Origin: Marsupella aquatica
Lineage: Eukaryota; Plantae; Marchantiophyta
NCBI GenBank assembly: GCA_973895155.1
Contig: OZ316893.1
Coordinates: 18,542,857-18,606,856 of the forward strand
Length of the DNA: 64,000 nt
Direction of reading: 5' to 3'
Numbering within the stretch: position 1 is the first letter of the stretch; each line of letters starts with the position of its first letter. Under the pieces are notes generated by a model, which was not told where the DNA came from, ran no database searches, and saw only the letters and a list, made by a program, of their open reading frames with translations. Positions 5,523 through 43,147 of this stretch are shown here, piece after piece. The translations under genes were made by a program, and so were the position numbers.

Positions 5523-5535
5523 CGTTATCAGCACG
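5523..5535 (+). promoter_or_regulatory. Primer-binding site of the Copia element (non-standard, Bianca-type)
   Basis: CGTTATCAGCACG directly follows the 5' LTR, instead of the common TGGTATCAGAGC. Confidence 0.7.
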
Positions 5536-10900: not shown

Positions 10901-11298
10901 TTTATGAGGCTACTAGAGAATGTTTATGGCTAAGGCAAGTAATAGACCATATTCTTATTCAAACAGGTAAACAAAACTTAACCATGCCTACAACTATATT
11001 TGAAGACAATATGTCATGCATCACTCAAATCAAATCAGGATTTATAAAAGGTGAACGCACAAAACATATTGCACCCAAGTTCTTTTTCTCACATGAACAA
11101 CAAGGAAAAGACATCGACATACAATGGATTTCAGGAGACAAGAACCTGGCCGACATCCTAACAAAATCTCTACCCCCATCTACTCATAGAACACTAACTC
11201 ACCTCTTGGGGATGCGAAGTCTTAAGAAACTGATGCAGGATTCTAACATTGAGGGGGAGAATGGATTTTTCTACAACAACACTATTGAAGAAGAATGA
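7918..11298 (+). CDS. Copia pol: GAG-pre-integrase, integrase, RT, RNase H
   Basis: WHMRLGHP, CIAC, HADVCGP, RTDGAGEF, QNGLAES, YKARLVAKG, LYGLKQSGR, YVDD, YVDAGY, NLADILTK. Confidence 0.95.
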   Translation: MPISHIYAPKARRNLLSFQDIRANNYHIQTNIQNLQEVLQITSHSPGGIIIRETISTHPSGFYITQNQCYNLGVESKDITETWHMRLGHPGTSMFHRIVNNSTGIPKTCHPRSFQKPCIACSQGKMITAPSIPKTENHIPAFLERLHADVCGPIDPPSGPFRYFLVVIDASSKWSRVSLLSTRNLVFPRILTHILRLRSQFPENPIRTLRTDGAGEFTSRTFDDFCTINGIDSQHNVPHVHFQNGLAESLIKRIQQIARPLLMQSSLPTSAWGHAVLHAATLLLYRPSAFNSNTPYHLAFGQPPNISHLRIFGCQVLIPILGPHRTKMGPQRRKGIYVGFDSTSIIRYMEPTTTDIFKARFSDCHFYENIFPTINTQEGKHKSYTKTLTWQASPALCPDPRTNQTELEVNRILQLTKIMESLPDSFADATHVTKFHIPAANTPSRIQDQRLSSNTLPQLKRGRPLGAVDKQPRNKRRPPTPTNHTRPPSQPEIAINYNSTGNILDRMMINLDLIFASHVANDINNLPDPKSVTEAQKQIDWSKWQEAMNSELDSLISRKVFGPITVASPDQHLMGYRMTFVKKRNSQGEILRYKARLVAKGYTQVYRTDYALTYSPVMDVTTYRYLIAFAIHNKLLMQQMDVVTAYLYGKLDNVIYMEAPPELIERVNFHANSKHNPHMHNDNSAKSFDYMNKLVLHNASKAIALQEPRKDHKATGAKTRYAVQVLSSLYGLKQSGRTWYHRFKNQMISMGYKNSEIAPCLFIKHEGPEFIIIAIYVDDLNLLGTKKMMNESMQTLKSVFEMRDMGRISYCIGLQFEHLEKGILLHQTTYTKKILQQFRMNMYKPVKSPMDIRTLDKDKDMFRKREEFEPILGSDMPYLSAIGALMFLSNQTRPDIAFSVNLLARHSSQPTIRHWNGLKRIFRYLNGTSDLGLYFPNEDNHKLKGYVDAGYLSDPHDGRSQTGYIFLMGSTPISWRSTKQTLATTSSNHSEIIALYEATRECLWLRQVIDHILIQTGKQNLTMPTTIFEDNMSCITQIKSGFIKGERTKHIAPKFFFSHEQQGKDIDIQWISGDKNLADILTKSLPPSTHRTLTHLLGMRSLKKLMQDSNIEGENGFFYNNTIEEE

Positions 11299-11666
11299 CT
11301 ACTTACTATGAAGAAGCAAACCATCAATACTACCACAAAGGAGATCAAGACATCCTCAAGAACACCAATAACTCAAATACAGTACAATGAAGACAATGGA
11401 GACAACAACCTCCATGGAGCCTAACAACATAGAAAACACAAATAAAACCAATATTGTACTCTAGACCTAACATACATACAAAATAGATCATACAAAAGAG
11501 ATGGAAGGTGGCAATACTCTTTCCTTCCATGATGTTAGTAGGGAAGGTTTTAATGAGACTGCACCTCCATCATCTCACAATATAACATAGGTAGAAGATA
11601 TCTAACTGATAGCAACTTAGATTGGTCGTTATAATTTCATCAAAAACTATAACACCCAAGGGGGAG

Positions 11667-11801
11667 TGTTATACCCTAACTAGGATTAGATATCTTAACC
11701 CGAGTTAAGATCTAACCAAGATCTAACTCAACTACCTCATGTATATATATTGGACACATGAATAAGATTCATTACATTGTTGGAGTATATGGTTTGTAAC
11801 A
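11667..11801 (+). repeat. Copia 3' LTR (135 bp)
   Basis: Matches the 5' LTR; preceded by the polypurine tract AAGGGGGAG and followed by TSD GAATG. Confidence 0.95.
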
Positions 11802-14308: not shown

Positions 14309-16990
14309 GTGATTCCAACACCTACATCATATCAGGTTCCTCAATTGTCTGTTCAACCACAATCAGGTCTGTACACACCTCTTTCAGCTCCAACCAGCAC
14401 ATTCCCAGCTCCGTTGTTAACATCAACAATTCCACCAGTGTACGGGATGAAGGCTAGCAACTCATCCAGCAAAATTGGGAATTTTAGTGGCCGGCCTAGC
14501 ACCATTTCTCTATGGGAATTCAAAGCAGCATTTTACACAATTGTGTATGAGTTGAAGCTCAAGTACTTGAGCCACTACACTGCTGCCTTTGCATTCAAAC
14601 AATTGGCAAGGCATGTGCACCATGAGGCATTGGACGTGTACCAGCAGCACTCAAGGCGGTTATTGCGTGTCACTCAAACCCCAAATCCTGCTTACGCTGC
14701 TTCCATAGCCGGTGCCCACCAGACAGCTGCTGCTGCTGCCACTTCTTCATCTAGTAGTGCACCTTCATCAACTATGGTGGTATTGAGTCCAGCTGAGCTT
14801 GCTCTAGCTACTACAGGCATCTCTCTCACTCTAGATAAACCAGTGTATCCTGATCCAGTGGATGAGTTCTTTCAAATTATTGAACAAGAATTTACAGTGA
14901 AGAGTTCAAAGAAGATCATAGCTTGCTACATTCATGCGGCAGAAGGATGAAACATTGAAGATGATGTACCAACAATTGCTCAAGTTGAAGGACATCCACC
15001 AACAGTATCACAGACCAAGAGACTGCAAATTGTTATCTTGATGCGCTTGAGAGTAACCCTTCACTCCATTTGCAGGTGCTACAATAGGTTTTTGCACAAC
15101 ATGGGGATTCTTACACTCTTCTTCAAGTGTAAAACATTGCAGAGAAGTTTGAGCTGGCCCATGCTCATTACCAGGCCAGTCACTCATGTTGTGGACCACA
15201 AACCAGGCCTTTGGTTCCTACCCCAACACCTGGTAGGTCAATAGTGCAACCCCAACGAGTTAAGCAATGCTGCACCTATGCTTGTCCCTTCTTGCAATTC
15301 CTATGGGAATCCAGATCATAAGCCTTATGAATGTGATGTCCCTACAGATGAGCTCTACTGTGACTTTTGTGGGAAGTCTAGACATTTGGAACCTGTATGT
15401 TTCTCCAAGTTTCCAAAGCGGAAGAACTTGAGGCACCAGCCCACTCCCACCATTGCCCTTTCTTCCTTTGCACAGTCCAAGAGGAGTGTTGCCGCTACTC
15501 TTTCATTGTCCAACAAACCTGCTGGTTTTAACAAGAATGCCAAGAACAAGGAGCACCAGAAAGCTCCGTTCTTCAAGCTCCAACTACTCAGGTGCACGAA
15601 TTGACATGACTTCTTTGCCAAAAAGTGCCTCAACTCTGAATTTAGTAGTGGGGCATGTACAGCAACCAGGTGCATCACCAAAAGCTAATCATATGGTACA
15701 ATCTCCATATCATATTTCAGGCATGGCACACCAATTTCTCACTCCTCCATTGTTTAGTTGCCAAGACCTAGAGTTGAATGCTAGAGATGTGATTACCTTG
15801 CTGGAGGGCACATTGAACTCTACGTCAGGTCCCTCATTAGCTACTATGATGCCTGTTATGGAGATCCAACATCAGGTTTTGATTGGACCCAATTTGTCAC
15901 ATGCTGAAAATAGTATGCATTTGTCACTTCCTAGTTCTAGTGCTACTATGACTATTGATTCCATGACTAAGTCTACATCTGAGTGTTCAGGGAATTCTCA
16001 ATCCCTCTTGGACATGCTCATCAGTGACAAGGTTGTGGAAACTAATGTCCTGCACAAGATGTCTCACAATGTGCCCAAGATTGTTCCTAGTGACAGGACT
16101 TCAGTCTCCACTAGTGTTGCCATTGTTGATATGGCTGCAGCGGTACGGGTTTGGGCCATGTTCCTAAGGTGGTCATGTTCCATACTAGAGCTCAGTCTAT
16201 GATTCTTGGAATTCAATTTGCTTTGTTGGGGCTAGTTGACTCCAAATTGCATAAATCAACATGGTACATCCGGACAACAAGTGGCCCTGTGGAGGAGGTA
16301 CTAGGTGATAGTGCTAAATAGTTCACTCTCTCTTCAAATGAAGGTACAGATCAAGAACTCCAATTCCAGGTCAGATGTCTGGTCACCAATGCCACCAGCT
16401 ATGATGTGCTCATTGGCCAAGAGGCTTTATTCTTGCCAGGATCTACCGTTGATAACTAGTGCATACTATCGTGCTGATTGGCAAACTGATGGCATGTGCT
16501 TGGGCTACATTCCATTGGATTTACATGGGGAACATACCCCTAGTGCTCACTACTGTGTTGAAAGAGGTGCATGCAGTTTCCTATGTCAACCATTCATTGC
16601 ACGATTGGATTGAAGAAGATGAAGAGGAGTTGGCTATCACACAAGCCAATGAGAGATTACTGGCTGCACCTACTGAGTTAGCTCCTCAACCTGGGGTTGT
16701 ACAATGGCTAAGAGCTGCCCATGGACCATTGACTATTGCTCTGCAGCAATGTGAGGGCCTACAAAGCCATGGTCAGCCCATAATCCCAGTCTTAAGCACA
16801 CTAATCACTTGGACACCTCCTCGAGATGGTGTTACCTTGCTAGAACTTGTTGGTGGCATTTCTACAGGCCTAGAGGGGGTCTTTCAGTCTAGCATGATGG
16901 TGAAGAGGTACATCTATGTGGACACTGACCCATATGCAAGGAAGATGGCTCAATCACAGATCTGGAATTTTCAACTAGGTTCCCACAGCA
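14309..16990 (+). mobile_element. DNMT-carrying Gypsy copy A (subfamily 1), 5' half: gag, two zinc knuckles, protease, start of C5-methyltransferase
   Basis: Gag 14309-14950; knuckles CNSYGNPDHKPYEC and CDFCGKSRHLEPVC; decayed protease VVMFHTRAQSMILG near 16170; MTase motif I region LLELVGGISTG...RYIYVDTD. 16768-16990 is near-identical to 42033-42258. Confidence 0.8.
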
Positions 16991-17019
16991 TTATAGTTTA
17001 CACATTGACAGATGGATTA

Positions 17020-18045
17020 CCAATGCATTTCGTTGCATCTTTTCTGGACCTACTAGCATAGTTACACAAATCTTGAGCTGCATAGCTCTTGAACTCAAAG
17101 CCTGGGCATTTAAGCAGACCAAGTTCCTACGCAAGTTCTTCCACATACAAACTTCCTTCTTTTGGGTCATTGATTCACTGTATGAATTCATGTTGAACTT
17201 GCCCTCTAAACTACACAACTACTTTGTAGCGGATATTACCTGATGCTATTAAACCATCCCTCTCAACGGGAATGATAACCTACCCAATGCCCTGGCACAC
17301 GTCGCCAGAATTGCTTTTGAACATCATAATACTAAACTTCAAAAAAATGAACGTCTCTGGGTCCTCATCAACGTTACAACGGGACTCGCGACAGAAGCAT
17401 GGTGGGGACAACAATCACCTGGTACATCCTGTTGGATTGAATTTTCTCTAGAATGCTTCCTTATGTTACAATCTTGGCTGATCTCTAATTGTTTCATCCG
17501 ACTCAGGGATCAAGTTTGGCGCCAGATTACTGGAATCCCGATGGGCTTTTCTTGCTCACCACAATGGTGTAACTTATACTTCATTTCATATGAGTTTAAA
17601 TTCATGCAACGACTAGCGCAACTGAAATGCCATCATATGATGCCACTCTTCCACAATACGTACCGATACGCCAAAATACTAATATTAGTTTGGACCTTAG
17701 TAAAAAATGGACCTTAATAAAAAATCAAGTTTGGTGCAGCTGAAATTCCATCATATGATGCCACTCTTCCACAATACGTATCGATACGCTGAAATACAAA
17801 TATTAGTTTGGACCTTAGTAAAAATGGACCTTAGTAAAAAATCAAGTTTGGCGCCAGATTACTGGAATCCCGATGGGCTTTTCTTGCTCATCACAATGGT
17901 GTAAGTTATAATTCATTTCATATGAGTTTAAATTCATGTAACGACTAGCGCAACTGAAATTCCATCATATGATGCCACTCTTCCACAATACGTACCGATA
18001 CATCGACAACTTCTGCATCCTCAACAAAGAACTCTTCAAGATTCT
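17020..18045 (+). mobile_element. Penelope-like element RT fragment with internal duplications
   Basis: FFWVIDS...FVADIT..Y.TIP, then RQITGIPMGFSCSP...NLY...TYRYIDN, i.e. PLE-type RT motifs; stops present. Confidence 0.7.
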
Positions 18046-18049
18046 TGGC

Positions 18050-18260
18050 ACCATAGACTTACAATGACATCACTTTGACAACATACCCGCCAAGGTGCAG
18101 TTGTTTGTCAACTATAGGTTTGGCACGCCCTTGAGTCATTGCGGAGTATCTCCACTTGTTCCACCACCGCTCCCATGGCACCTCCTTCATCGGCCCCAAC
18201 GTCAAACCTCCCCGGGGACAATCAACATCAGACGCCACCTTGGGCCCCAGTTGACATGGC
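18050..18260 (+). repeat. Diverged fragment of the element at 37400-40380
   Basis: CACTTTGACAACATACCCGCCAAGGTGCAG at about 18072 matches CACTTTGATGACATACCCGCCAAGGTGCAG at about 38166. Confidence 0.6.
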
Positions 18261-21182: not shown

Positions 21183-21788
21183 TGTCGTGCGCATACACAT
21201 CGCTACACAACCTACATTGCTTGTCATCACATACATCCAGACATCGTCACATTGCCACATCACAAACACAAGAGAATGGAATACAAGTGGAACTCATATC
21301 CACACATGTCCAAAACCCACAATAATCTTCACAACAATCGTAACAACGATCGATGCCAACAATACGCACTCAATCCCAGGCATCCGATCCAATCACACAC
21401 ATATGTCGAGCCAACGCACCTTGCACTCAAGGAATCCATGCTACATAGAGAGAGCTCTCAGCCACCATAGCCACCACACAAGCTCTCCTCTCCAAGGCTC
21501 AACATTGAAAGATAACCTTTCAATGCCTCACAAGAGAGAACTACCCTCTCACACAAACCTAACGGAACCTTATCGGCTTATAGCACACATACCAAACATA
21601 CTAACCTAGATAGTACAATACACTCTAACACTACCTAGAATGGTGTGACAGCTATCGTGCGCATACACATCGCTACACAACCTACATCGCTTGTCACATA
21701 CATCCAAATATTGTCACACTGCCACATCACAAACACAAGAGAATGGAATACAAGTGGAACTCATGTCCACATATGTCCAAAACCCACA
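21183..21788 (-). repeat. 3' LTR region of Gypsy copy B, with a ~135-bp direct repeat at both ends
   Basis: TGTGGGTTTTGG begins 2 nt after the PPT; 21185-21323 repeats 21655-21790. Confidence 0.6.
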
Positions 21789-21964
21789 ATCGCCCCCTAG
21801 TTGGGAGTAAGGTCCCCTAACTCTAGCTAGCCATGAGTTCTACAAGGCTGATATACACCTTTTTTTAAGTGTGAAGATCAGGAGGCCGGGTGCAAGTGAA
21901 CCCCATCAATCACCTTCCTGCAATACATATCTGCCAAGAGAACACAAATGATAACTAGTCGACT

Positions 21965-22112
21965 TCACCGACACTGAGGACACAACCATGATCCACTAGG
22001 AATCACCTGTAATGGTGGTGTCAAACATGATATGTGCCATCCTCTAGAACACTTATCACAAATCAATATAGTAGCTGTTCCTGAGCAGATCCACACAACA
22101 TACATTTCAAGC
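21965..22112 (-). pseudogene. PHD finger at the integrase C-terminus (one frameshift)
   Basis: CMLCGSA/GTATILICDKCSRGWHISCLTPPLQVIPSGSWLCPQCR* gives the C4HC3 pattern. Confidence 0.9.
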
Positions 22113-22338
22113 CAACACGAACATGTGCCAAGCTTGTATCTATTGTACCATCAATGTTGGGAAGGTGACATGGTGCACAGTTGCGCACATGATCTTTCCA
22201 AACCATACCATCGTGTCCCTCCAACATCAGGACACCAGAAGGCAACACTTCATGCACACGTAAAATTGTCCGGCCTACGGTCACATCAAGTGTCGTGGGT
22301 GCTGTCTCCTACAAATAAACATAATCACCAGGATGAAA

Positions 22339-25019
22339 TCATTGAATGCTTGCACAATAACCTCCTCCACGGATAGTGGCATACCTCAAAGTATCATGAT
22401 GTTGGGCAATGGCAAGGTTGTCGAAAGCCATGGGCATCATTCTTTGAAATACCCGTGCTCTCTCTAAACACACCTTGACCCAAACATCAAGATCATCCAA
22501 GTTCACAACTGATGCAACATCATGACAAATAGCTGTTGGCAAATCTACCTCTCGACCATAGAACAAAAAGTAAGGTGAGAAGGATGCAAGTGATGCTTGC
22601 CGGCTGAAACGGTAGCTCATAGCTAACCAAGGTAGTTGGAGATCCCAATCCCTAGATGACCAACCTGCAAGCCATACTTACGCAATCCTCTCTTCACGGT
22701 TTGCACAACTCTCTCAGCTAATCCATCTGCCTTAGGATGATCACGAGAAGTAGTACAATGATCAATCAGAGCTTGCTCACACAAATTCTCAAACTCTCCA
22801 CGGAACTCAGTTCCCTGATCAGTCAACACCTCAACTGGTGCTCCAAAACGACTGAGTACACGATCCAAAAATGTAGCAGGAACTCCTCCACTAGCTTTAT
22901 CTGGCAATGCCACTAGTTCAATCCACTTGGAGAAGTGCTCCACCATGACCAAAATATAACAATTGTGCCGTTGGGTGAGAGGCAGTGGACCAGCAAAGTC
23001 CAAACTCCATCTATACCCCAAACCCATGATTGGCAATGGATGCAACTGGGGAGTGGGAGCATTAAATGATGCTCTCACTCTATCACATACCACACACTTA
23101 GCTATCAACTGCTGGACATGAATGTGCATACCACACCACCAATATTGTGTCTGTAACAAGCTGTAAGTGCGCTTCACACCAAAGTGACCCAACTCCTTGT
23201 GCGCATGTCGCACCAAATGTACTCGTTGTGATGGTTTTGGTACCACCAACACCCTACCATCACGCAGTACTCTCAAAAGATGGTTTTCCTCCCATTGAAA
23301 CCTCTTGGCTCTCTATAGAACCCTGTCACGTTCCTTGGCATAAACACTGCCAACAATAGAACCACTGCGCAGATATTCCAACACTCTTACATCATTGTGA
23401 ATATCTTGTTGTCCAGAAGTTACCTCACTAACATCCACATCTGAAGACTCCTCATCCACTCCATCCAATGAGGTAGAGTCCACAGATCCATTGTATGCTA
23501 GCACCCAACAAAGAAAGGCAGATGCATGTCATCCTGGCACCATCTCCTTATCTGACTCATCATGCCATCTGGCTCCAGTCTCATCCTGCTGACTGGTACA
23601 TGGGTTGCGTAAACCCTAAATCCAAGTTCACCTTTCCAGGTCTATGTACAACTTGTAAATCATACTCCTGCAACAACAATGCCCATTTTGCAAGCTTCCC
23701 AATAAACTTGTCAGACTCCATTAACCACTTGAGAGGCTGATGATCAATGATCAAAGTGAAAGGATTACCAAACAAGTAACAGTGGAAGTGTGCCACAACC
23801 CACACTGCTACCAAACACTCTCCCTCATAAGAGTTATACTTAGCCTCTGCTGAATTGTTTGATCTACTAGCATATGCCACAACAAACTCATGTCCTTCAT
23901 CATCTTTTTGAGTCAGCACTGCTCCAAATCCCACTCCAATCAATGTGTAGCTGAAATGGTCTGCCTAAAATGGGTCTTCTCAAAATAGGGGATGATGTCA
24001 ACCTTTGCTTCAACTCCTGAAAGGCATGCTGCTGATCATCACCCCAAATCCATTCTTGATCTAGCTTAGTGAGTATGGTTAAAGGTTTAGCAAGCTGGCT
24101 AAATCCTTTAACATACCTCCTATAGTAGCTCGCCAATCCCAAGAATGCACGAACTCTGCTCACATCAGTAAGACAAGGAATCTGTGTAATGGCCTCCACT
24201 TTAGTCTGCTATACACCCAATCCCCCTGGGTATATAGTGTGGCCCAAATACTCAATCTGGTCTTGGAAGAACTTACACTTGCCAGAGTGGAGCTTCAACC
24301 CATGTGCTCTCAATCTCTCCAACACAATCTGCAAGTGCTACTGATGTTCTTCCACAGTAGACAAATAGACCAAAATGTCATCAATGTAACATCTGACAAA
24401 ATCCAAACCTACGAGGATTTGATCCATAACTCTCTGGAATCCATAACCCAAATGGTAAGAACAACCACCGATACAAATGATCTTTGCCATAAGAATCAAT
24501 CCCCCAGAATGTTGTCTTGGACCTGTCAGCATACCTAATTGGAAGCTGATGGTACCTTGCCCTCAGATCCAATGAACTGAAAACCTTTGCATGCCCCACA
24601 GCATCAAAGATCTCCTCAGGTGTGGGCATGGCATATTGATAAGATTTTTTCTGGCAATTAATAGGTTTGTAATCACCACACATGCGCCTATCTGTGTCAT
24701 TCTCATGCACATCTTTCTTGGCTGGCATTACTGTGGCAGATGCATACTCCCCATATGAAATCTCCACCAATCCAGCCTCCAACAAATCTTGAGTTCTACT
24801 TTGAATCAAAGCTCTCTCCATGTCACTATAACGGTATGGTCTATGAAAGATTGGCGCATCACTAGCCAATTCAATTTGAATACCAGGGCTCTTCAATGTC
24901 CCAAAATCCTTCATGCTGAATGCAAAATAATTCCAATAACTCTTAAGGAATCGATGCATGCGACGTCTCTCCTCCCCTGTCAACTTAGGACCAATCTGTG
25001 GCTCCCAACTCTCCACCAA
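22339..25019 (-). pseudogene. Gypsy copy B RT, RNase H and integrase
   Basis: ORFs 24381-25019, 23900-24199, 23581-23943, 22623-23276 and 22339-22620 carry successive pol motifs, separated by frameshifts and stops. Confidence 0.9.
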
Positions 25020-25239
25020 ATTCCTAATATCTTTTTGTAGGGTAGAAGAGATAGCCGATGATTGCTATTTAGCAATAGATTGAGCAGTCCCTTCTTGCTC
25101 AACAATCTGTCCAACCTTGGCCAATCTTGCCATAGGTCCATGGATTGTCTGCTCGCCCCCAGTTGTGGTCATCACTGTCTCAATGGACCCGCAAGCTCAC
25201 TAATGGACGATCAGTAACACCAGCAGAGCGCATCCACAA

Positions 25240-26240
25240 CTATTCAGCTAATCCCAAGCTCATAATCCAAGTCAAGCAATTCAAATCCATTGCTTGACCA
25301 AGGACCTGGCGGCGTGAACTCTTTGACACTAAGGCAACTGCAGTGGTGCCTGTCAAAAATCCCATAGCACGCTCCCTCTCATCAGCAGTAGGCTCCACTA
25401 ACTGCTGGAGAGCTGTGTTCCACACAAGTCCAGGACCACCTGCTCTGAATGCATATGAAGCAGAGTGGCTCACAAGAGTGGGTAATGCACAACGTGGGCG
25501 CCCAACTACATTGACCATTGCCAATGGAGATCTATCAGGTTGGGTCACACCCTGTGCACGATGCCTTGGATCCAAAATATCATCCACCACTAAGGCTGGT
25601 GAGCGTGGAATGTTGTCAAATGTACACTTCAGCACCTCACATGGGATCAAATTAGTCCACCACAAGCGTGGACGATGTGCACGAGAACCCACACGTGCAG
25701 CATCCAATAACATAGCAGGTCCAATGCAAGACCTCACCTGGTGAACATTGGCAACAATCCGACTACGGTCATCACCTAACAATGGCACATTCTCCAAAAT
25801 GTATGTTGGAGACTGTATTTGATGTAGCTGAAGATGACGCAACACCCATAACATCTCCCACAACAATGCAGAGCGTGGATCATGAAGTCCATGCCCAACG
25901 CCAGCTCTAGATTGGCCCTGACATGGCCAACCAGCAATCACCAAATCAATGGGGCCAACACGATGCAAATGATCCGCCCCCAACAATGAAATATCAGCAG
26001 GTAGTGCATGCTAATAACCACAAATAGCATCCACTGGCAGCAACTATGGATATCTATCCACCAACATAGCCACATGCCGCAATGAGACCTTCCGTGCTGT
26101 CGCATTTATCTCCACATACAAATAACGACGCACAAGAATTCATGCCTGAAGAACAACAACCAATCCAGTGCTAATCCCACCAAATAGATTCAACAAGCAA
26201 ATACCCTTCGATGGATACTACCAAACAATAGGAGTGGTAT
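25240..26240 (-). pseudogene. C5 cytosine DNA methyltransferase domain within the Gypsy polyprotein
   Basis: One reading frame with 4 stops upstream of 25986: motif I LLNLFGGISTG, II YLYVEI, III ADI, IV DLVIAGWPCQGQS, VI ILENV, VIII RAHRPRLWW, IX EPTADERERAMGF, X RQVLGQAM. Confidence 0.93.
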
Positions 26241-27671
26241 CCACTGATGAAGTATCGAGATTGCTCTGCTTCTGACTGTGGTGTACATCCCACCAATGAT
26301 GTGTTGATAATCACCAACACATTATATGACTTTGCCTTAGTCAAAATAGCTGGCGCCTATATTTGTGAGCTATTTGTCGCATGACCTTCCTGAATCCTCA
26401 AATCAAGTGGTCTCTTGGTGATATGCTGTGTAAGTGTAGGTCCCTCCAATGAAGTCTGAATGGGAAAGGGATAATCCTCCAAATCCTTTGGACGCAATCC
26501 AATCCACGTATGGCAGACTTTTCCAACATCAAGGGCTGAGCACCAGTACCTAGTAACACTCTCTCTATCAATACTGTTCCAGATAGCCCAACTAATTGGA
26601 CGATACCACTCCGATTATCCAATGACATAACACTAGGTTTAAATCTAGTCCTCTCAAATGCAAGGCGTGCTGGTAAATCCACCAACCTTGCTGCTGCTGC
26701 ATGCCATGTCTCACTAGTAGCAGTAGGTGGCATGGTCTTCACTTCTTCAACATTGCAAGCTACTTCTGCATGGGAAGCAACAACTGGAGTGTCTTCATAG
26801 AGTGTAGCTACCAATCTGAACACTTTTATAGGACCAACTCCCAAGTTCAGCATGTTTGTCATTGAAAATAATGGGGTGCATACTATGGCAATAGCCGCCC
26901 CTAGCAGGGTACTTGTCATCCCTGTTGCATCACTACCTGATTCTGCCAACTTATCCTGACTAGGGTTTGTCCGAACCGGGTTCATAGAGACAGTCTGCAC
27001 TATCTCTGACAATGTCAAAGTCTGGGGAAGCTTTGTTTGCCAAGGTGCATCCCCCCTCTGTGGATCTAGCTCCACTACTGCTCCTCGGGGCTCAAGAGTT
27101 TTGGCTGCCCCACGTGTCAAAGCTATTGATGCATCAATATGTGCAGTGCCACACATGAATCCCATGGTGGCAAGGTCGTCATCAACTCCATAAGATGTGG
27201 AAGGACCATGGGATGCGGAAGGTCCATAGGATGTAGATGCCCCATCACCAGAAGTAAATCTCACTTGGGAACTAGCCATGGCAGCTAGCTGTTGTTCCAA
27301 TTGAGCAATCTTAGCATCCTTTGGATCTATGGTTATAGCCGGGGCAGCGTCACCTCCCTGTCTCCCTACATGCCATGATCACATCCACCACCTCTACCTC
27401 CTCCTCCTCCTCTTCCCTGATCATGTGTATGGGATCCTCCTCTCTGTAACTCAAGATGGAGTGAGAAACACCTATCCTTGGTGTGTCCAGGAGCTCCACA
27501 ATGATCACACTGTCGCTGATCAGGCGCTGATGCTCCCCCTAATCCTCTATGATCTGGGTAATATCTCTGTGCATGATCCCCACCATAGGTCCAACATCCT
27601 AACTGTTGTCCAGCATAAGAGGGCACAGGTCTCTGGCTGGTAGACTCTCGTGCAATAGGCTTCTCCCTCTA

Positions 27672-28811
27672 AGTGGTGGACCTTGCCACCTAGCGCCCTC
27701 ACCAATCCCAGCACTTGTGCCTAAGTGCCCTTGGTGCTCGAACACCTCCATGAAATACCTCAAGCAAGCATCCAAGTGCCTCTAGCACCACCTGCGGCCA
27801 CTCCCATACGAAGCCGCACTTGCTCACCTACACGACCGCTACTCAACGATCCTCACGGTCTACACAAGCAACCAAACACCTCGGTAACACAGTCTACACA
27901 AGCAAACACCTCGGTAAGTAACCCCTCCGGATATAGAACTTGCCAAGTCTAGCATCCTAACTCAAGCTCAACAGACGTTGGTAAATAGGTCAGCGATAGG
28001 TCCTCCCGATGCCATAAGCCGGAACCAGAACCCACGCCCACTGTCCGTCCAGGACAGCTCCTTCGTTGGGCGCGGCCAGGGTTCCCCCTCGTACCTATCC
28101 ATCACCAACTGACCGCCCTGACCTCAGGACATGCTCATGGCCCAAATAGCGTAGCTTGTCCTAAAGCTTGTCTCAAGCTTGTCTCAACACGCCGGGACCA
28201 GAACGACCCCGACTCTAACACCGACTCCCGGTTCGCCCCACTGATGGTCTAGGGACCGAGCGCCCTTGGGACTCAGCCTCCATACCTACTTGGCCTTGCC
28301 TCCCGAACGCAAACTCCCTTGGGAGGCTGAACGCGGCTTGGCTGCTGTTCGGCAGGATTTGGCAAATGGGCGAGCTAACACCCGCAAACCACGAGAACCC
28401 ATGGCACCCCCAGACCCAGCTGAGCTCAGGAGGGCGTAGCCCTCCTCAAGAGCTTTCCAACGCACCTAAGAAGTCCTCTAACGGACTTCCCGTTGGGAAG
28501 ATATTGTCATTTCCGTTTGGCGGTTTCCCTTAGTGTCGTGACCGTCGCGGCTCACGACTTCGGCTCGCCCTTAGCTCCCAGGGAGACACCACTCCCCTCA
28601 TATATGCTTCTGGGGACCTGCCACCCCCGGACCAGCTTTGGTCCCTAAAGGTTTGGCCCCCAACCCGGATCCCATCATGCATAATGGGCGCGCCACCAAC
28701 TGGCAACGCCCATAACTTTCTTGATAGGCATCCGCAAGCGGAGTGTCGTAGCCCGTTGTGACCGGGCCGACCCAGTGTTCATGTCTAGGCCCTCAGGTCT
28801 GATCGCCGCTC
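27672..28811 (-). mobile_element. Truncated copy of the AGT...ACT solo-LTR-like repeat
   Basis: Highly similar to 58880-59991; starts AGTGGTGGACCT and breaks off at GATCGCCGCTC. Confidence 0.85.
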
Positions 28812-29252: not shown

Positions 29253-32200
29253 ATGACGAACAACGTGAAGAACGGAGACGAGCCCGAAATCGAACAGTCA
29301 TTGGAGATGATGGTGAGTAATGGAAGAGAACTATCGCTGAATTTTGATGAAGTGAATAGAGCGGACGCTGGATCAGTGCCTAAGGTATCGTCACCGACCG
29401 TTCCAGGATCTCCCAAAACCGACTGTCAGTCCCTGGCCCAGAAATTTGCGGAACAGACGATCTCGAAGTCTAGATCAGATCAATGGGGCTTGCTCACTGC
29501 CGTAACCGAAAAAGCCACGAAGCGTCCTCAGGGTTGTCATATCGTGCTACATAACCAGGAACATGTCTTAGGCCGCATAGTGACGGACAGTAGCTGCATG
29601 TTTGAGTCTCCAGCCGTCAGTGGCCGACATTGCACCATTACGCGCAAACCCATCACCTTTGATGGGCGTATCAAGAACCCGGGCAGTGATCGTGTTGCAG
29701 GGGGCATACACGGCACTTTCATAAAGGATTCAAGTTCCAACGGAACTTATATCAACAAAGAAAAGATCAGAAAGAATGGTCCAGAGGTACAGCTTCGACA
29801 TGGTGACATCATTTCGCTAGTAGCGTTGCCTGAGCACGAAAATGCATTTGCGTTTGTGTATCGGGAAGTTCTAGGTGTGTCGTCGTTCAAGAGGAAGGGA
29901 TCTCCATTAGACCGTGATTCAGATGTACAACCTGTGGGAGATGGCAAGCGAATTAAAAGCACAGGAAAATGTGTTGCTAGCGAGGGCCCAGTATCTCTTG
30001 ACGATTTGCGACAATTGCAGAGATCCAATGAAGAGCTGAGGCAGCAGTTAGAGGCGAATGTGCTTGAAATGGAGAAGATGCGCGGTGAGTTTCGGGCTGC
30101 TGAGGCTCTCCACCTCGTTGAGGTTAAGGAACTACGAGTTTCTGTCACAGAAATGTATACTAAGCAAATTGAAGAGATTCGACTTGAACTTGTGAGCAGA
30201 AGCAAAGGGGTAGAGGAAACTGCAGCACTGTGTTCGCAACAAGGAACCACCATTGAAGATCTCAATCATCGTCTTGCTTCTGCAGCGCAATCGAAGGTGG
30301 ATGCGGAAGAAGCCATCCGCAGCCATGCTACCAGTATAGCAGAACTCAAGAAGCGTTTGGATGAAGAATATAGCCAGCACCACAAGGAGAGAGCTGAATG
30401 GGAAGCAAATCTCGAAGCAGCTTTAGAGAGAACCCGGATGGAGACTTCAGAAGAACTAAAGCGCCATTCCGATGCCTCTGCCCGGTTGCAGAAGCAACAG
30501 CTAGACACCATAGCTGATTTGCAGGAGGCAGACAAGGAGAATCGTCGCCTTGCAGACAGCCTTCGAATCAAGTTGGAGGCCGAGAGGCAAGCGGTCATCA
30601 TAGTTGACGAGAAAGGTCGAAGGTTGGGAATGCAGTTACAAGAAGAACGGCTCTCAACAGAGAATGCTTCCAAGAAAGCTGAAGAATTGCAAGAGGAACT
30701 AAGAAAGGTTCACAGGGAGCTTGTGATCGAGAAGGAAGCTAGAGAATCTGCAGCGGCGAAGATTGCGAGTTTGGAACTGGCAATGGAGACCGCCATACGA
30801 GATTTGACACTGGAGAAGCAGCGATTACAAGGCGCACGAGAGCGAATTGTGCTGAGGGAGACTCAACTGCGAACATTCTACTCGACCGCTGCTCAAGTTG
30901 AAGCTTTGCAGCAGAAACAGCAGGAGCAGTTGAAGGTTATGCTAAGAACTCTGGAAGATGGCGACGGCGAAGGTGACTATCCTGAGAGTAGAAAGCCTAG
31001 AATGCATGGTCAGAGTGGATGCGTGGTTGACGAAGCCAAAATCATTGCTAACTTAGCATCACGGCGAAGGTCCTCCGCTCCCGATGCGAGCTTTCTCCTG
31101 CAGGATAAGTGTTTGGGTGTCCATTCTGGCAATGCAGATGGTGGACAGGAGAAGCATCCTCTTGGAGGAGAATCGTGTACGAGAAAGGCAGAGTATGCTG
31201 AACCGGGTTGGATGGATGGGGATACTCAACAAGAAGATGAAGACTGCTCTCCCTCAACTTCCAAACTTCAAACTAATGGAGCAGACGTTATAATCGGAGT
31301 GCAAGAAATAGTCGGAGAGGAATGCGGTTGTGGCCCCAAAGAGAACTTAAATACCGATGAGGAAACCCAGGTGCTGCAGGATCCTGGTATAACTTCTACA
31401 ACCCAGTTGGTTACAGATACTTTGCAAGAGAATGAGTCCAGTGAAGGACAAGCATTGTTTAAAGACAGCATGAGACTAAAACCCAGATTCTGGCATGAAA
31501 GAAGGAAATCAAATTTGGGTCCATATGCATTAGATTCTGCTTCTAGAGATGATGGAGTCGTCATGGGACCTGTAGGAAAAGTTACTGAAGAAAGTAAGCG
31601 AGCTAAGAATGAGACCGTTGGTTTAGGTAGTGGAAGGGTCGCCTTGGACATCTCTGACGATCCTGGGGATCCTTTTCCGAAAGAGTCAGTTGGAACAAGA
31701 ACAGTAGCAGAAATTGATGGATTAACCGCGGATGGTTCTCCTGTCTTGAATGTGGGGAGTATGAGTGGTGCTGACGAGGATGCACAAGAGGGGAAAAGCA
31801 GCAAAAAGGCAGCTACGGTGTGCACTGATGATCTTCTGACATCCGAGATTGCTGGAAGCTGGGCATTGGGCACCCAAGCCTCAGTGCATACTGCAAACGA
31901 AGAAGGGAGTCTCCGCATTGGCGGGGACAGGATGAGCCATCCAATTCACAATGATACACAACTAGTAGTAAAGGAACAAGAAGGGACAATGTGTACAGAT
32001 GACCTTCTTGCATCGGAGGTCGCTGGCAGTTGGGCAGCTGGTACTCCAGCCTCTGTGAACGCTGACAACGAATCTATTAGCAGTGACGAGAGGGACCACC
32101 CTGATCATGATGAAGGTGGGAGCCAAGCTGCAGCTACTCTCAGTAGACCTAGGTCGAACCCCCGTCATGTTCTTCTAGAGGATATCATGCACTTCGCTGA

Positions 32201-32450
32201 TCCAGTGAATAGTCAAAACTCTCTGTCACCGGCCACTACGAATCCGGCAAGAAATGAACGGGAAGCATTGGATGAGATGCTTGATATTGTGGAGCCCGGA
32301 TTTGGTAGCTTGTTTGGCCTGCCAAAGGTTACCAGACATCAATCTGATGAAGATGATTCCACAACTGATGATGAGGATGAAAATCAAGGAAATACCCGAA
32401 GTGATGGTTCACAACCTTTGAACCAATCTTCTTCTGTCTTTGTTAAGTGA
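29253..32450 (+). CDS. SMAD/FHA-domain coiled-coil protein (resembles the Arabidopsis AT2G45460 family), intronless
   Basis: Uninterrupted ~1065-aa ORF. FHA motifs LGR, SPAVSGRHC, DSSSNGTYIN, LRHGDII; long coiled coil with KQRLQGARERIVLRETQLRTFYST; C-terminal DLLASEVAGSWA motif. The true start may be a downstream ATG. Confidence 0.9.
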   Translation: MTNNVKNGDEPEIEQSLEMMVSNGRELSLNFDEVNRADAGSVPKVSSPTVPGSPKTDCQSLAQKFAEQTISKSRSDQWGLLTAVTEKATKRPQGCHIVLHNQEHVLGRIVTDSSCMFESPAVSGRHCTITRKPITFDGRIKNPGSDRVAGGIHGTFIKDSSSNGTYINKEKIRKNGPEVQLRHGDIISLVALPEHENAFAFVYREVLGVSSFKRKGSPLDRDSDVQPVGDGKRIKSTGKCVASEGPVSLDDLRQLQRSNEELRQQLEANVLEMEKMRGEFRAAEALHLVEVKELRVSVTEMYTKQIEEIRLELVSRSKGVEETAALCSQQGTTIEDLNHRLASAAQSKVDAEEAIRSHATSIAELKKRLDEEYSQHHKERAEWEANLEAALERTRMETSEELKRHSDASARLQKQQLDTIADLQEADKENRRLADSLRIKLEAERQAVIIVDEKGRRLGMQLQEERLSTENASKKAEELQEELRKVHRELVIEKEARESAAAKIASLELAMETAIRDLTLEKQRLQGARERIVLRETQLRTFYSTAAQVEALQQKQQEQLKVMLRTLEDGDGEGDYPESRKPRMHGQSGCVVDEAKIIANLASRRRSSAPDASFLLQDKCLGVHSGNADGGQEKHPLGGESCTRKAEYAEPGWMDGDTQQEDEDCSPSTSKLQTNGADVIIGVQEIVGEECGCGPKENLNTDEETQVLQDPGITSTTQLVTDTLQENESSEGQALFKDSMRLKPRFWHERRKSNLGPYALDSASRDDGVVMGPVGKVTEESKRAKNETVGLGSGRVALDISDDPGDPFPKESVGTRTVAEIDGLTADGSPVLNVGSMSGADEDAQEGKSSKKAATVCTDDLLTSEIAGSWALGTQASVHTANEEGSLRIGGDRMSHPIHNDTQLVVKEQEGTMCTDDLLASEVAGSWAAGTPASVNADNESISSDERDHPDHDEGGSQAAATLSRPRSNPRHVLLEDIMHFADPVNSQNSLSPATTNPARNEREALDEMLDIVEPGFGSLFGLPKVTRHQSDEDDSTTDDEDENQGNTRSDGSQPLNQSSSVFVK

Positions 32451-34507: not shown

Positions 34508-36833
34508 CATGGTATTGGTATTGGTATTGGTAATGTATTTTAAGCTCCGTACCATAAAAGTCAAGGAAGCTGCAACAAAAGTGAAAGTATGATGCAAAGG
34601 AATGAGCAATCAATGAAAGATTGCTCACTTGAGGATCTATATGTCCTCTATCAAACTAAGGACCTAAAGAGTCCTTGAGATGTTCCAAACCTTCTCTCCA
34701 TTCTTTATTCCAACTTGGTCATCACACAACCACCTGGAGAAAATTGGATGCATCATGGGGTGGATACAAAGGTATATTCCATGACACCTCATTTTCTGCA
34801 AGTTGGAGCAGCTTGTGGCCTTAGAATATTAAATGGGATTGAAAGATTCTCCCACTCTTCAGATTTCACATTCAAATCCATGCAAGGGAGTCATACCATT
34901 GACTATCGGGTCCACCTTCCTCTGCTGTTAGAGACATAATTTACCCTAGTTGTTTCATCTTAACTTGGTCCTACCTCAAAGACACAAAACAACCAAGCAA
35001 GCTTCTAGGATGCAATTCGTTTTTAGATTATGAGAAGGTGGACATTTTTAGAGCTGAGATTGAGGCACTTCTTCACCCCATTCTACTGTTTTAGAGCTTT
35101 CAAAATTGGTGGTTAAGCGGGTGGTTAAGCAACAGCGCACATCTTCTCTAGAAGGTCCCATTCTAAAGACAAAAGATGAAAGCATGGTTTGATGAAGAGT
35201 GTAGACAAGCTAGAGAAAAAGCTATGTCACAACAGAGGATACAAAGTTGTTGCATTGAGGATGTAGAGTAATTTCATCAAACACTACATATGGTGTTCTA
35301 TAAGGTAATAAAAGCAGGTACTTTGAGTTTCATAAGAATCCAAGGCTTTTTGGGCAGATGCTTACAGCGAGGAGAGAAACTTCTCGCTTAGACCAACATG
35401 AACTGTTAAGCTTGCAAAATCTCTGCACTTCTATCCTGATGCTGCCCGCATGCCTTTGGAGTTTGGAGCACAAATTTGGGGCACACATTTTGGGGCACGT
35501 GTGGCTAAATCAGGGTGGCAACACGTTGAGGGGATCCAAATCTTTTCTTTGAGATGGAGCTTGAGGTTAAGTCACAAACTCCATATGCCCTGACACTTGG
35601 AGAAGCAGGATTTTTCCCATTGGTTTGAGGCACTCTTCCAAACACTCAAATACATCATGTGTGTAAGAGAGTTAGAGGAAGACCATAGATTTCCTTTTCA
35701 TGCCTTGCGGTCATCTTTTGCTAAAAGTTGGTATACAAATGCTTGTAGGTGGGCTCATGCTTGGGACTTTCCTAGTCGCGGAACTTGACTACCTTAACAC
35801 TTAGCTCCGGCGTCACTAACTCTGATGTCGAGCTCCCCTATGGTCCAAGCCTGGAAGACCATCCAAGGAGGACTTAGAATGGGGAGACTTGTGGGAAAAG
35901 GGGCGTGGCACTGGCAAAGGTAAGGCGCTAAGCTGGTGACACATACTAAGGACTCAGACTAGTTGAGGGCTGGTCAGGTCATGAGAAAGAGCCGGCCTCA
36001 AGGTTGACACTCCGGACCCCTGGACAGACTTTGAGTTGTGAGGGCTTGAGTGAGAGCTCCTCTTGGGCCCAAGCATCTCTTACCGGACCGTATTCAAGTT
36101 CAATCTATTTACCAATGTGTGTTGAACTTGAATTAGGATGCTAGACTTGGGGAGATCTAGATCATGTTGGGTTACCTACCGGAGTACTTGGTTGCTTGTG
36201 CAGACAGTGAGGACCGTTGAGCAACGATCGTGTTAGGGAGCAAGTGTGGCTTTGTATGGGAGTGGCCGTCGGGGGGGTGCAAGGGACATTAAATTGCTTG
36301 CTCAAGGAGTTCCGGGGAGGCATTTGGGCACCAAGGGCACTTAGGCGTGGGTGCTGGGATTGGTGAGGGCACTGGGTGGAAAGGCCCACCACTCTCTTAA
36401 ACATGAATGGCCAACACCCCTAACAAAGCATAGATCAACACTTGAACAATAGGCTATGCACAAACTTTGGCATGATCAACTTTGGCATGTTCCTAGCCCC
36501 TGGCTGCAATATTGCATTATTATTACCAATATTGCACAAGGAATGTGAGAAATACGGAGAACAAGAATACCTGTCTATAACTATTTTAGTACAGCTGAGA
36601 CATATGATTGCTTGCTATATGGTAATGGTAAATAAATGTTTAATTATAGACTTAGTTCACACCATCTTGAAGTAGAACAAGAGAGATAGAAGGGTATTGA
36701 GAGATAAATAGTGTTTGTCAACTTTGTGATAGCTCTAGTATAGAGAATGAATATGATGTTTTCATTGCTTTCAAGTTTTATGAGGGTGTCAAACGCATCT
36801 CAGATCTTGGTCAAAGATTTGTATGCATTGTTC
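34508..36833. mobile_element. Old RTEX-like LINE copy: minus-strand 3' end plus inverted, internally deleted body
   Basis: 34508-34710 on the minus strand matches the LINE ORF2 end and 3' UTR, with a (CAATAC)n tail. 34736-36833 on the plus strand matches LINE positions ~990-1720 and ~2820-3535. Interrupted at 35774-36393. Confidence 0.8.
35774..36393 (+). mobile_element. Internally deleted AGT...ACT solo-LTR-like element inserted in the old LINE
   Basis: AGTCGCGGAACT...CCCACCACT; host LINE sequence (..TTTCCT | AACATGAATGG..) resumes after 5 extra bases (TTCCT/CTCTT). Confidence 0.8.
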
Positions 36834-37399: not shown

Positions 37400-40380
37400 G
37401 TACTCCGGCCTAATCCGTGCTGAGCACGTACGAAGTGGACTTAGTAGTCCATAGTTATTAGCATAGTGACATGAAATTAGTTAGTAATGATGAATAGAAC
37501 AAGTTTAGTCAATAAAGAGCATTCACGCTCGCGCTGGTGGCGCTGTGCCTTACGTACCGTCGGATTAGGAGCGCATTATCAATGACTGTCCGCCTTGGAT
37601 CCGTATAACTGATCCGGAGGCGGCCCTCTGGCATGCCCTGACCCGGACCTGAGGAGTGGTCGGTACACCTTGGGCATGAGGATCTCGGCCTATCACAAGC
37701 AGGAGGAATCGATCGGTCAACATGCCACAAGGGTATAAAAGGAGGGCTCTTCCCCGTCTTGTGTCACTAGTGCACTCCGCGCGCCAGCTTTGATCCCAGC
37801 TCTTCTGTTTTTTCCCTTAGCAATCCAACACACCTTGCTATAAGTCTGTCATGGTTATGTCCAGTTCTGCCATTTGCTTTTGGTTCCAATTTCTGGGTAT
37901 TGGTAACCATCTTGCAAAAATGCTCGCCGAGCACAACCCGCGCAAGTATGAAGCCAAAAGATAGTACAAACAACTTATCCGTTTGAACGGGCGCTCTCAC
38001 TACAACAACGACCTCAACCTTCCCTTTGAGAGCAAGTACTGTCGGGATGAGGAGATCGCCAAATTCTTCTTTGACGGTACAAAGTACCTCAGCTTTGGAG
38101 AAGCGCTCCTTTGACTTCCGGATGAGGTCTTCAAGATCCCGGGCACGGTGGACTTGCAGCGTCATCACTTTGATGACATACCCGCCAAGGTGCAGTCCTT
38201 CCTTGACTATCGGTTTGGCAGTCCAAATTTGGGCGGGTCGTCAATTCTAGCATTGCTCGGCTTCCTATCCAAACTGTTGGGTCCTATGGCGCCCCCTCCA
38301 GCTACACTTGCAGCCAACTTGCCAGCATCGGCACAAACACCGCCTTGGCCTCACTCAAGCCGCTCCCCACCACCGGTCGCACCGCCCCCTTGGGTATGAT
38401 TCGTGGTAAATGCGATAAACATCAGTTTAGAGGATGAGGAGGCTCATCCACCCCTTGTTTGGAGACCACCAGGGATGCACCAACACGGGACGGGTAGCAC
38501 ATCGCTGTCCGCACAAGCCCAAACCCAAGATGCAGCCTTGATGGACAACACGGTGACGGTTGCAGCGCCGGCACCCATTCTAACGGCAGTAGCACTACCC
38601 CTGCCGGATAGGGAAGATGGGGAGATATCCCCTTCTATAAGCCATCCTGGGAACCAATCTTGGGGAAGGAAGAGGAAGGAGCCGGCTGCAGTATCTGGCT
38701 TACCCGCGGCCACCTGCTTTTGTGCCAGACTCGACGGTTTTTGAAACCCTGGATGCCCAAAACCAGGCCCGTGCAGTTACAGCCGATCAGGTTGAAGCCG
38801 GCCCCGAACCCGAGGCCGTCATCCCGGAGGAAGCCACGGTACCCTCCGCACCTGTCCAAGTGGATCCCCTTGCTGGACACCCCTCCCCGTCTATCCTTAC
38901 TACCTTGGATCTGGACGTAACAACCCCGGCCTCTGCCCGAGTAGAGGTCTGTCCCTGCCCTAACCCGACTAGGCACAACCTGGTGAACCCGGAACTCTTT
39001 GCACCAGGCACGTATTTGAATGGGCTGCTAGGCGACTTCTCATAACAAATTAGTTGGGAAATGGGGGAGTTCATGGCCCGCAAGGTGGCTTACTTCTTCA
39101 GTCAAGAGCTGGTGGCGGCGGTGAAGGTAGGGCTGAAGCCACAACAAAGATTGAGCGGTATCAGGTTGAGGCAGCCCAACTCTTAGACAAAGCCTCACAC
39201 CGAGCTACAACTTCTTTGGCCTCAACTTGCGACCGCTGTGGCCCAGGTCGCTGACATTGAAGCCAAGTTAGCCTTAGCCGCCCAAGCCAGAGCCAAAAAG
39301 GACTCCAAAATCTCACGGCTTTGGGTCCAGATTGACAGCTTGAAAGGGCAAGCTGTAATCTAGCAGAAGGACGTAGAGGAGGCCGACGCTTGGGCCCAAA
39401 GGGATACAGCCAAGGTAGATGCCCTAAAGGCGGAGGTGGCATAGCTTTGACAGGAAGCCACTAAACAAGACCAACTGGTGGCAAAGCTGACAAGCGACGC
39501 CCAACAGTTGGAAGAGGCGTGTCAGGAGGCCGCAGAGGAGACGAATGCGGCAAAACGAGAGAATGATTCTCTCTTGGACCAAGTCCAGATCCTCAAGCAA
39601 GATGTCGACCGGCTGAGGAGGCAATAGGACGGTCGCTCCAAGTCCCACTTGGGCGGGTCTGGCAAACGTGCCAGAGATAAGGTGGCACGGCAAGTTTAGA
39701 ATAGTGTAGATTTAGCTGAGGAACTTGGACACTACATACAAACGCCAAAACTAGTTAGCGGCGCTGTCAACCTTCTTTTAGCATAGAATCTTAGTGTAAT
39801 GACAAGTCATTTTGCGGCCTGGCATTTAGCTAAAATTAGAATAGGCTAGAATTTGAGCACGTAACTGTTCCTAGCCATGACTCTTAGTTAGTATTTAGTG
39901 CACCCCCGGTGGAGGTACCGGGGGGGAGACTTTAGGTTTTGAATTGGGTATCCGCGGATGTGCGGGGAGTCCCAACCTTAGTGAATGAAAGAGTACCACG
40001 GAGTGAGGGTACGACTAAGCTCGCCGGACAAGTGCAGAGCCGGGCTCTATTGTAGTGTATGCAATAGTGCGCACGGGGTGACGACTGCGGATATTGGTTG
40101 CAAGCACGGGTTAGATACCAGTATCATTGGATCCGGATTGGAGGTGGATAGCGCAAAGGCTTAGAAGTCCTTAAGTCGGGGTCAATCCAACCATTGACTT
40201 AAGGTACGTTCCGGCGGCGGAATACAAAATATACCTATGATGTGTGTAAACTTAAAATTGGACGCGGGTAGCTTCAAGTTACGGGAGTAAGTGCAGTTCA
40301 CACATCCCTCCTTGCCGGAAACCTCAATATTTACAAAGCTTGTGGCCGCCTAAGCCAAAATCCGTGTAAGGGCGACTCTT
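37400..40380 (+). mobile_element. Probable LTR-retrotransposon-derived segment with a decayed Pro-rich/coiled-coil accessory ORF
   Basis: LTR-like TATA context GGGTATAAAAGGAGGG at 37731; broken GC-rich reading frames 38026-39690; related fragment at 18050-18260. Boundaries uncertain. Confidence 0.45.
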
Positions 40381-43106: not shown

Positions 43107-43110
43107 TGAA

Positions 43111-43147
43111 GTCCCGGAGCTTATAATACATTACCATTACCATTACC
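43111..43147 (+). mobile_element. Extremely 5'-truncated (37-bp) insertion of the RTEX-like LINE
   Basis: GTCCCGGAGCTTATAATACATTACCATTACCATTACC matches the LINE 3' end at 3740-3772; AAGT on both sides (43109-43112 and 43148-43151). Confidence 0.85.

Follow-up and report, generated by a model that had tools for sequence, protein, structure and literature searches.

A Ty3/Gypsy-type retroelement family of liverworts and mosses with a DNMT3-like methyltransferase ahead of a conserved, probably leaky stop codon

Introduction

KnitGypsy-Dnmt3 of Klebsormidium nitens is a Gypsy retrotransposon that carries a cytosine DNA methyltransferase (DNMT) in its Pol ORF, described as an acquisition of that lineage (PMC5890265). 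Its enzyme gave no methylation in yeast, a result that the authors judged inconclusive, and SymbioDIRS-Dnmt3 of Symbiodinium produced de novo CG methylation in yeast (PMC5890265). In the text of a 2026 preprint, such elements are referred to as "streptophytes (Gypsy-DNMT3)", with land plants unnamed, and its supplements may include bryophytes (bioRxiv 10.64898/2026.05.21.726589). Hosts that are hard to work with have kept the function of DNMTs on retrotransposons unsettled since 2018.

The present study deals with related elements in the liverwort Marsupella aquatica, in a window of 64,000 nucleotides (the whole stretch of contig OZ316893.1 that was analysed) where retroelements are nested about a single host gene. 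A previous sequence-only reading of this window had proposed a Ty3/Gypsy element with a C5 methyltransferase of its own; here its structure, relatives, inheritance and likely mode of expression are described.

Results

Copy A is a decayed Ty3/Gypsy element on the minus strand of the window (21183-27668), with gag, protease, C5 methyltransferase, reverse transcriptase (RT), RNase H, integrase and PHD finger in this order, the Gag-PR-RT-RH-IN arrangement of Ty3/Gypsy being present. The 3' part of gag (26900-27668, minus strand), detected by tblastn with the Marchantia protein P0002, contains two decayed zinc knuckles (27596-27573 and 27509-27483); copy A has neither the 5' part of gag nor a 5' terminal repeat, and gag is interrupted by an unrelated high-copy repeat (27672-28811) that lies outside the element and has copies elsewhere in the window. 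The retropepsin-like protease (26310-26700, minus strand; protease-like site at 26556-26536) has Gly at the position of the catalytic Asp, followed by a frameshift. In relatives of copy A, Asp_protease_2 matched P0200 and P0204 above the cut-off and P0001 below it (E 0.0012), and the fold matches of the protease were caulimovirid aspartic proteases. Further along the same strand, a frameshifted RT (YIDD at 24388-24377) with RNase H (23620-25049), an integrase with an H2C2 finger and rve core (22350-23312, by domain match) and a frameshifted C-terminal PHD finger (21968-22104) were identified, PF00628 being found on intact relatives and on a further copy, C. With three premature stops in the methyltransferase (26142, 26046 and 26013, all in its N-terminal third), frameshifts in the protease and pol, and Gly for the protease Asp, copy A is dead and non-functional.

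The methyltransferase (25243-26217, minus strand) lies between protease and RT on the pol strand with motifs I-X in linear order, as the sequence-only reading had described, and the coordinates were confirmed: LFGGISTG (26187-26164, motif I), GWPCQG (25932-25915, IV), ILENV (25800-25786, VI), RAHRPRLWW (25683-25657, VIII), ERERAMGF (25380-25357) and LGQAMD (25302-25285). The motif numbering agrees with an alignment to DNMT3A. The expected PF00145 match was obtained with a 256-aa ORF (25243-26010) at E 8e-9 and 35.8 bits, against a cut-off of 22. The nearest relative, P0001, is 83% identical and has an open frame; by sequence, its best match among solved structures was DNMT3A (E 4e-11), with HaeIII at 5e-5. 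The predicted model of P0001 (mean pLDDT 70, mostly 80-97 within the methyltransferase domain) matched the fold of DNMT3A/B/C at a TM of about 0.8 on the target (0.79-0.83 in most top matches). The top four viral models reached TM 0.48-0.65 with E-values similar to those of the DNMT3 fold matches, and phage methyltransferases match by sequence too (23-31% identity). Judged by the best sequence and predicted-fold match among solved methyltransferases, the domain is DNMT3-like. The earlier view that it is not a captured plant DRM also held, as the motifs of copy A are linear and not circularly permuted; in 4onj (tobacco DRM2), the match to motifs I-IV is confined to the C-terminal end of that protein. 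Across alignments of 22 and 11 sequences, the catalytic residues Cys, Gln, Glu-Asn and Arg show no variation, the SAM-binding glycines of the family are invariant or almost so, and the domain search found no targeting domain belonging to the methyltransferase itself.

The 3' end of copy A (21183-21802, minus strand) consists of a polypurine tract, repeat B (21790-21655), a 2-nt spacer, block A running from TGTCA to 21324, and a second repeat B (21323-21185) with a CA end, repeat B being 139 bp and block A 330 bp long. Of the features of a Ty3/Gypsy terminus, copy A therefore has only the polypurine tract and the CA end. Five complete relatives from both lineages described below (L054, L042, L045, L048 and L073) show the layout A-coding-B-A-B with a TGTCA start and a CA end, together with Gypsy domains and a DNMT3-like domain; L054 belongs to copy A's own lineage. 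A 4-bp target duplication flanks the whole element in four of these five, L048 having three candidate ends, and three further loci are of the form A-coding-B, with one exact and two near target duplications. Two identical LTRs with a tRNA primer-binding site were not found, the ends being A-coding-B-A-B or A-coding-B, and TGG directly followed the 5' repeat in none of 11 loci. The family is thus Gypsy by its coding domains and not a canonical LTR element, because the layout of LTRs and primer site is lacking. The internal B-A junction reads CA-NN-TG by pattern in 9 of 12 cases, and we conjecture that the ends are replicated by cleaving a circle at one such junction. The five exact duplications are CATA, GGTC, CCAA, ATCC and TACA, none of them NCGN; an NCGN target preference is described for the Phygy clade of Physcomitrella (Neumann et al. 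2019, PMC6317226). Two loci (L014, 6116-6002; L018, 6126-6012) have an inverted B repeat upstream of gag in place of the 5' A, either a rearrangement or an alternative end. Split ends of this kind, combined with true target duplications, suggest that the elements replicate by an unexplained route, and LTR finders would likely miss them.

Two further copies (16770-16990 and 42029-43106 in the earlier reading) had been taken as members of the same family. Copy B (14483-17003, plus strand; tblastn of L060 and tree) comprises gag, protease and the N-terminal part of the methyltransferase and is then truncated. Copy C (plus strand) has the methyltransferase and the start of RT at 42029-43544, and the rest of RT, RNase H, integrase, PHD and polypurine tract at 48934-51690, with about 5.4 kb inserted inside its RT (L060 residue 1431 at 43544, residue 1432 at 48934). 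A LINE fragment consisting of the tail only also lies inside copy C, after the DNMT. Copies B and C are 92% identical over 239 nt (16766-17003 against 42033-42266) and have no nucleotide match to copy A; the protein of copy C is 42% identical to that of copy A and reads WECQ and QNT where copy A has WPCQ and ENV. Both group with loci L038-L060 at a support of 1.0. Together, B and C show the gag-protease-DNMT-RT placement, so this part of the earlier claim stands, but they do so in a second lineage (lineage II), distinct from that of copy A (lineage I), and membership of one family does not. Two old lineages that share one domain order are thus present in this liverwort.

A protein search with the methyltransferase gave 84 relatives, among which Marchantia polymorpha (18), Calypogeia fissa (2), Sphagnum (2), Closterium (3), Haematococcus (1) and bacterial bins (2) are named; a profile search gave 109 and added Cymbomonas and a second Haematococcus protein. 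No named vascular plant or Klebsormidium protein was among the 84 and 109 matches of these word-limited searches, a weak hint that named relatives are absent there. The Closterium protein P0056 reads WECQ, as lineage II does. Among 156 proteins, the order RT-RNase H-DNMT is found in 68, of which 60 extend through integrase and PHD, while 41 have protease and DNMT alone. In the chlorophyte members P0267 (Cymbomonas), P0078 and P0255 (both Haematococcus), the DNMT is on the integrase side of RNase H and a PHD is present; P0267 carries the wrong name of MBD protein.

In the best 80 of 284 confirmed metagenome loci, the protease lies upstream of the DNMT in 56 of the 62 loci with room for it, and RT lies downstream in 61 of 64. 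The summed contig depth of DNMT relative to pol was 0.99, 0.99, 1.04 and 0.82 in four public runs, which is consistent with most copies carrying the DNMT; the contig depth of the element was 58-571 times that of one flanking bin, a depth that is no copy number. In viral contigs, 45 pattern matches to the methyltransferase included none that is related. Prokaryote genomes gave six loci among 17 matches, four of them weak (30-41%). The two strong ones, L081 (CADCWO010000201.1) and L082 (JBAVTE010000030.1), are complete Gypsy elements with DNMT and PHD on short binned contigs. P0017 and P0084 are likewise proteins of such elements filed under bacterial bins. A bacterial origin of these four was rejected in favour of likely eukaryotic contamination, and contaminated bins of this kind could mislead studies of methyltransferase origin.

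The trees of the DNMT and the RT, which the sequence-only reading had called for, proved congruent. For 78 elements with both domains, 28 of the 36 well-supported splits of the DNMT tree reappear in that of RT, as do 29 of 33 in the opposite comparison, with a Mantel r of 0.68 that none of 999 permutations equalled. The 16 elements with the DNMT before RT form a single group in both trees (0.997 and 0.999). These are FastTree trees, rooted at the midpoint without an outgroup, so the direction in which the domain moved is left unfixed by them. The predicted dN/dS below 1 was also borne out: values were 0.14-0.16 between copy A and the moss-like loci L004, L005 and L009, at a dS of 1.6-1.8 that is near saturation, and 0.12 between L030 and L031, with dS between the main lineages being saturated. 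Within families, dN/dS was 0.46 and 0.34 for the DNMT and 0.45 and 0.28 for RT, which reflects decay after insertion. What had been named as evidence against the proposal was found in none of its forms, as the profile matches, most family members keep the domain, and the catalytic residues are invariant under purifying selection. CpG depletion was discarded as a sign of self-methylation, since the observed/expected ratio of copy A (0.25-0.44) is exceeded in depletion by a LINE without a DNMT in the window (0.10), and the signal is thus non-specific.

Between ORF1 and ORF2 of copy A, an in-frame TAG followed by CAA TCA (25067-25059, minus strand), a readthrough-type motif, stands in the RT frame, and P0001 ends at the equivalent codon. 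In the lineage of copy A, the methyltransferase closes ORF1 together with Gag and protease. The first stop upstream of RT was sought in the 80 loci, of which 52 could be scored and 28 were omitted, having an RT start more than 520 nt from the DNMT or none at all (short contigs, nested insertions); loci were assigned to lineages by their identity to the window copies. CARYY comes directly after this stop in all 23 scored loci of lineage I and in none of the 29 of lineage II; of 223 decay stops, 2 have such a context. The counts refer to metagenome loci and not to the host's own copies. In lineage I, it sits 18-24 codons before the RT anchor; in lineage II, 15 of 29 loci have no stop and the remainder have scattered stops. 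Accordingly, two earlier expectations held in part. The methyltransferase is indeed in a polyprotein with Gag and protease in ORF1, but RT is joined to it only across the conserved stop; and a single open PR-MTase-RT frame occurs in lineage II (15/29 without a stop) but not in the lineage of copy A (23/23 with one).

Twenty of the 23 lineage-I loci are one moss-like family, which groups with a Sphagnum protein in the tree, and 19 of the 23 have CAACCC or CAACCT, one base off the UAG-CAR-YYA consensus; six stops are TAA and three are out of the DNMT frame. The full UAG-CAR-YYA motif is found in copy A, L030, L031, L032, L036 and L081, and with TAA in L029. The plant element SIRE1 has the same motif between pol and env. 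Independent cases with other linkers are L036 (CAACTA), L032 (CAACCA) and L030/L031 (CAGTTA). In L031, the stop at the DNMT/RT junction is the single stop in 2395 codons, and in L081, fetched later from a separate collection, TAG CAA TCA is the sole stop from gag to PHD. The stop is kept across linkers of 80, 94, 112 and 128 codons, and most bryophyte-type database proteins end 58-145 residues past the DNMT. In both trees, the elements with the stop fall into a single clade (0.949 and 0.999) beside open-frame relatives, and the stop is therefore probably derived. UAG-CAR-YYA is the readthrough consensus of tobamoviruses and works with UAA too (PMC3542737). It is thus quite probable, from the conserved stop and its context, that ribosomes read through it at a low rate to reach RT, RNase H, integrase and PHD.

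As for the rest of the window, the host gene (29307-32447, plus strand) encodes an FHA-domain protein with a Calypogeia fissa counterpart at 76% identity across 96% of the length, and with Marchantia and Riccia counterparts at 46-49%, whereas matches in mosses and vascular plants cover about half the length only. This pattern points to a leafy liverwort as the most likely host. Relative to the Calypogeia orthologue it runs unbroken for 1058 residues with no coding introns, possibly as a retrocopy or through intron loss. The repeat that interrupts copy A is a GC-rich element of about 1.5 kb (27672-28811, 58880-60375 and 35774-36393) with sharp AGT...ACT ends and a shared terminus; one copy is internally deleted, no target duplication is evident, and CpG o/e is 0.74. 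Its contig depth is very high, and 108 contigs of run X1 and 90 of run X3 have a loose end at 27672. An RT fragment with QITGIPMG and internal tandem duplications (17000-18125, plus strand, directly after copy B; also 38128-38220) had no Pfam match, its Atlas neighbours including RVT_1 clusters at 0.90, and is presumably Penelope-like. The LINE (435-3773, 44430-44999, 35477-36832 and 43110-43145; CpG o/e 0.10) has endonuclease and RT in an open 1071-aa frame and a tail of TTACCA repeats, and a near-identical second 3' part suggests recent activity. A Copia element (5387-11801, plus strand), whose 136-bp terminal repeats are 100% identical and whose open frame spans 1126 aa, is likely a recent insertion. 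Rfam gave no matches in the window.

Discussion

The anatomy reported here can be regarded as practically certain: it comprises the domain order, the presence of the DNMT throughout the family and its inheritance together with RT, purifying selection, the stop conserved along with its context, and the split repeats with 4-bp duplications. Our main reading of it, to which we give a probability of roughly 0.6, is that the Gag-protease-DNMT ORF1 ends at a leaky TAG-CAR-YY stop, and that the enzyme, made at the level of Gag, would be packaged and likely methylate the CG sites of the cDNA before insertion. Most ribosomes would stop after Gag-protease-DNMT, with a minority going on to RT-RNase H-integrase-PHD. 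Inside the particle, the methyltransferase would be released by the protease, in large excess over RT, and would find the cDNA as its available substrate; methylated at CG before insertion, new copies would arrive pre-marked, like host DNA. Release by the protease and de novo CG methylation of the cDNA are, in our estimation, slightly favoured over their absence. The PHD may in turn steer insertion into silent chromatin without H3K4 methylation. It resembles the PHDs of CHD4, PHF12, PHF21A and KDM5, several of which read unmethylated H3K4; in animals, DNMT3 is steered in a comparable way by its ADD domain. We consider such insertion guided by the PHD an even chance. The conserved stop suggests selection on the amount of enzyme made, and the lack of such a stop in lineage II and many algal elements suggests that high stoichiometry is not needed by every family.

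Alternatively, the abundant methyltransferase could work in trans and chiefly within the nucleus, with resident copies, competing elements or host chromatin as its targets instead of cDNA in the particle. Expression at the level of Gag would exceed the need of one cDNA, and effects on the host methylome are raised by de Mendoza et al. (PMC5890265). However, the domain is either fused to Gag and protease or, in algal elements (68/156 proteins), placed between RNase H and integrase, and both positions deliver it to the particle; moreover, the enzyme has no targeting domain of its own, which makes mainly nuclear action unlikely. The step from ORF1 to ORF2 might also be achieved not by readthrough but by splicing, with the TAG providing the 3' splice AG, or by reinitiation. 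Such a route fits only the moss-like family, which has a T-rich run before the stop and a Met two codons after it, whereas in copy A, L031, L032 and L081 neither the pyrimidine run nor the early Met is present, yet frame and CAR-YY are retained, and the frame is kept across four linker lengths; splicing or reinitiation is accordingly the less probable of these two alternatives, at odds we would put well below one in five. Still less credible is that the family retains the domain for binding DNA or RNA, with methyl transfer weak or absent, as could be suggested by the inactivity of the Klebsormidium domain in yeast (PMC5890265) and by ECQ for PCQ and ENT for ENV in lineage II; against this, no variation is seen in the catalytic Cys, Gln, Glu-Asn and Arg, the SAM glycines are invariant or nearly so, and the predicted fold matches active DNMT3. 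Finally, capture of a host or bacterial methyltransferase fragment by this copy alone, followed by neutral decay, would agree with the three stops in its domain and a window full of nested insertions, but is ruled out by the family data, namely the same position in 56/62 and 61/64 loci, DNMT/RT congruence, a dN/dS of 0.12-0.16, and target duplications around the whole element in four of five complete relatives.

What is likely new is the existence of Gypsy-DNMT3 members in land plants with split ends and a probable readthrough layout, in which a conserved stop follows the DNMT at the close of ORF1. The available text of PMC5890265 does not mention PHD, readthrough, Marchantia or Sphagnum, and that of PMC6317226, PMC12885004, PMC8557442, PMC6673714, PMC9940879 and PMC11982613 contains nothing on bryophyte members or CARYYA. 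Literature searches for bryophyte members, five Marchantia gene ids, and CARYYA with retrotransposons likewise returned nothing, in a scope outside which most subscription journals fall. As a tentative and, taken as a whole, rather doubtful picture, Gypsy elements with DNMT3 and PHD could be one old clade over chlorophytes, zygnematophytes, mosses and liverworts rather than a one-off capture in Klebsormidium. The domain would have moved once, from behind RNase H to before RT, and one land-plant branch would then have gained a virus-type leaky stop, making the DNMT as abundant as Gag; lacking a tRNA primer site, the elements would regenerate their ends through an integrase cut at an internal CA-NN-TG junction, and in bryophyte genomes they would act as mobile sources of de novo CG methylation. 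Since Marchantia polymorpha, a model with methylomes and mutants, has 18 annotated matching proteins, the question is testable. In addition, the conserved stop explains gene models named "DNA methylase" that end short of RT, and these can inflate DNMT counts in bryophytes.

As regards known systems, the element enzyme shares linear motif order and the catalytic fold with host DNMT3, an enzyme that bryophytes also have (human DNMT3A/B, PDB; TM about 0.8), but is only about 22% identical, lacks PWWP and ADD, is intronless and lies inside a retroelement frame. With tobacco mosaic virus, a case of type I readthrough, copy A, L030, L031, L032, L036 and L081 have the stop, its six-base context and the downstream polymerase in common (PMC3542737), whereas here the predicted readthrough stop follows a Gag-protease-DNMT frame in an LTR-type retrotransposon. 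SymbioDIRS-Dnmt3 and SymbioLINE-Dnmt are likewise retrotransposons with a cytosine methyltransferase, differing in element class and host (PMC5890265), and the EpiLTRs of Cymbomonas and Euglena, with a DNMT4-related enzyme, DAM and a chromodomain, differ in DNMT clade and host (bioRxiv 10.64898/2026.05.21.726589). A histone reader at the C-terminus of integrase is shared with Chlamydomonas REM1 and chromoviruses, for which the available text reports no DNMT (PMC6673714, PMC8557442). KnitGypsy-Dnmt3 shares the most by its description: the Gypsy domain set, a non-permuted, intronless DNMT3-like domain under purifying selection, and the DIRS-like A-coding-B-A-B layout. Unlike it, the present element resides in a liverwort, with relatives in mosses and chlorophytes, and its DNMT ends ORF1 before a stop (PMC5890265).
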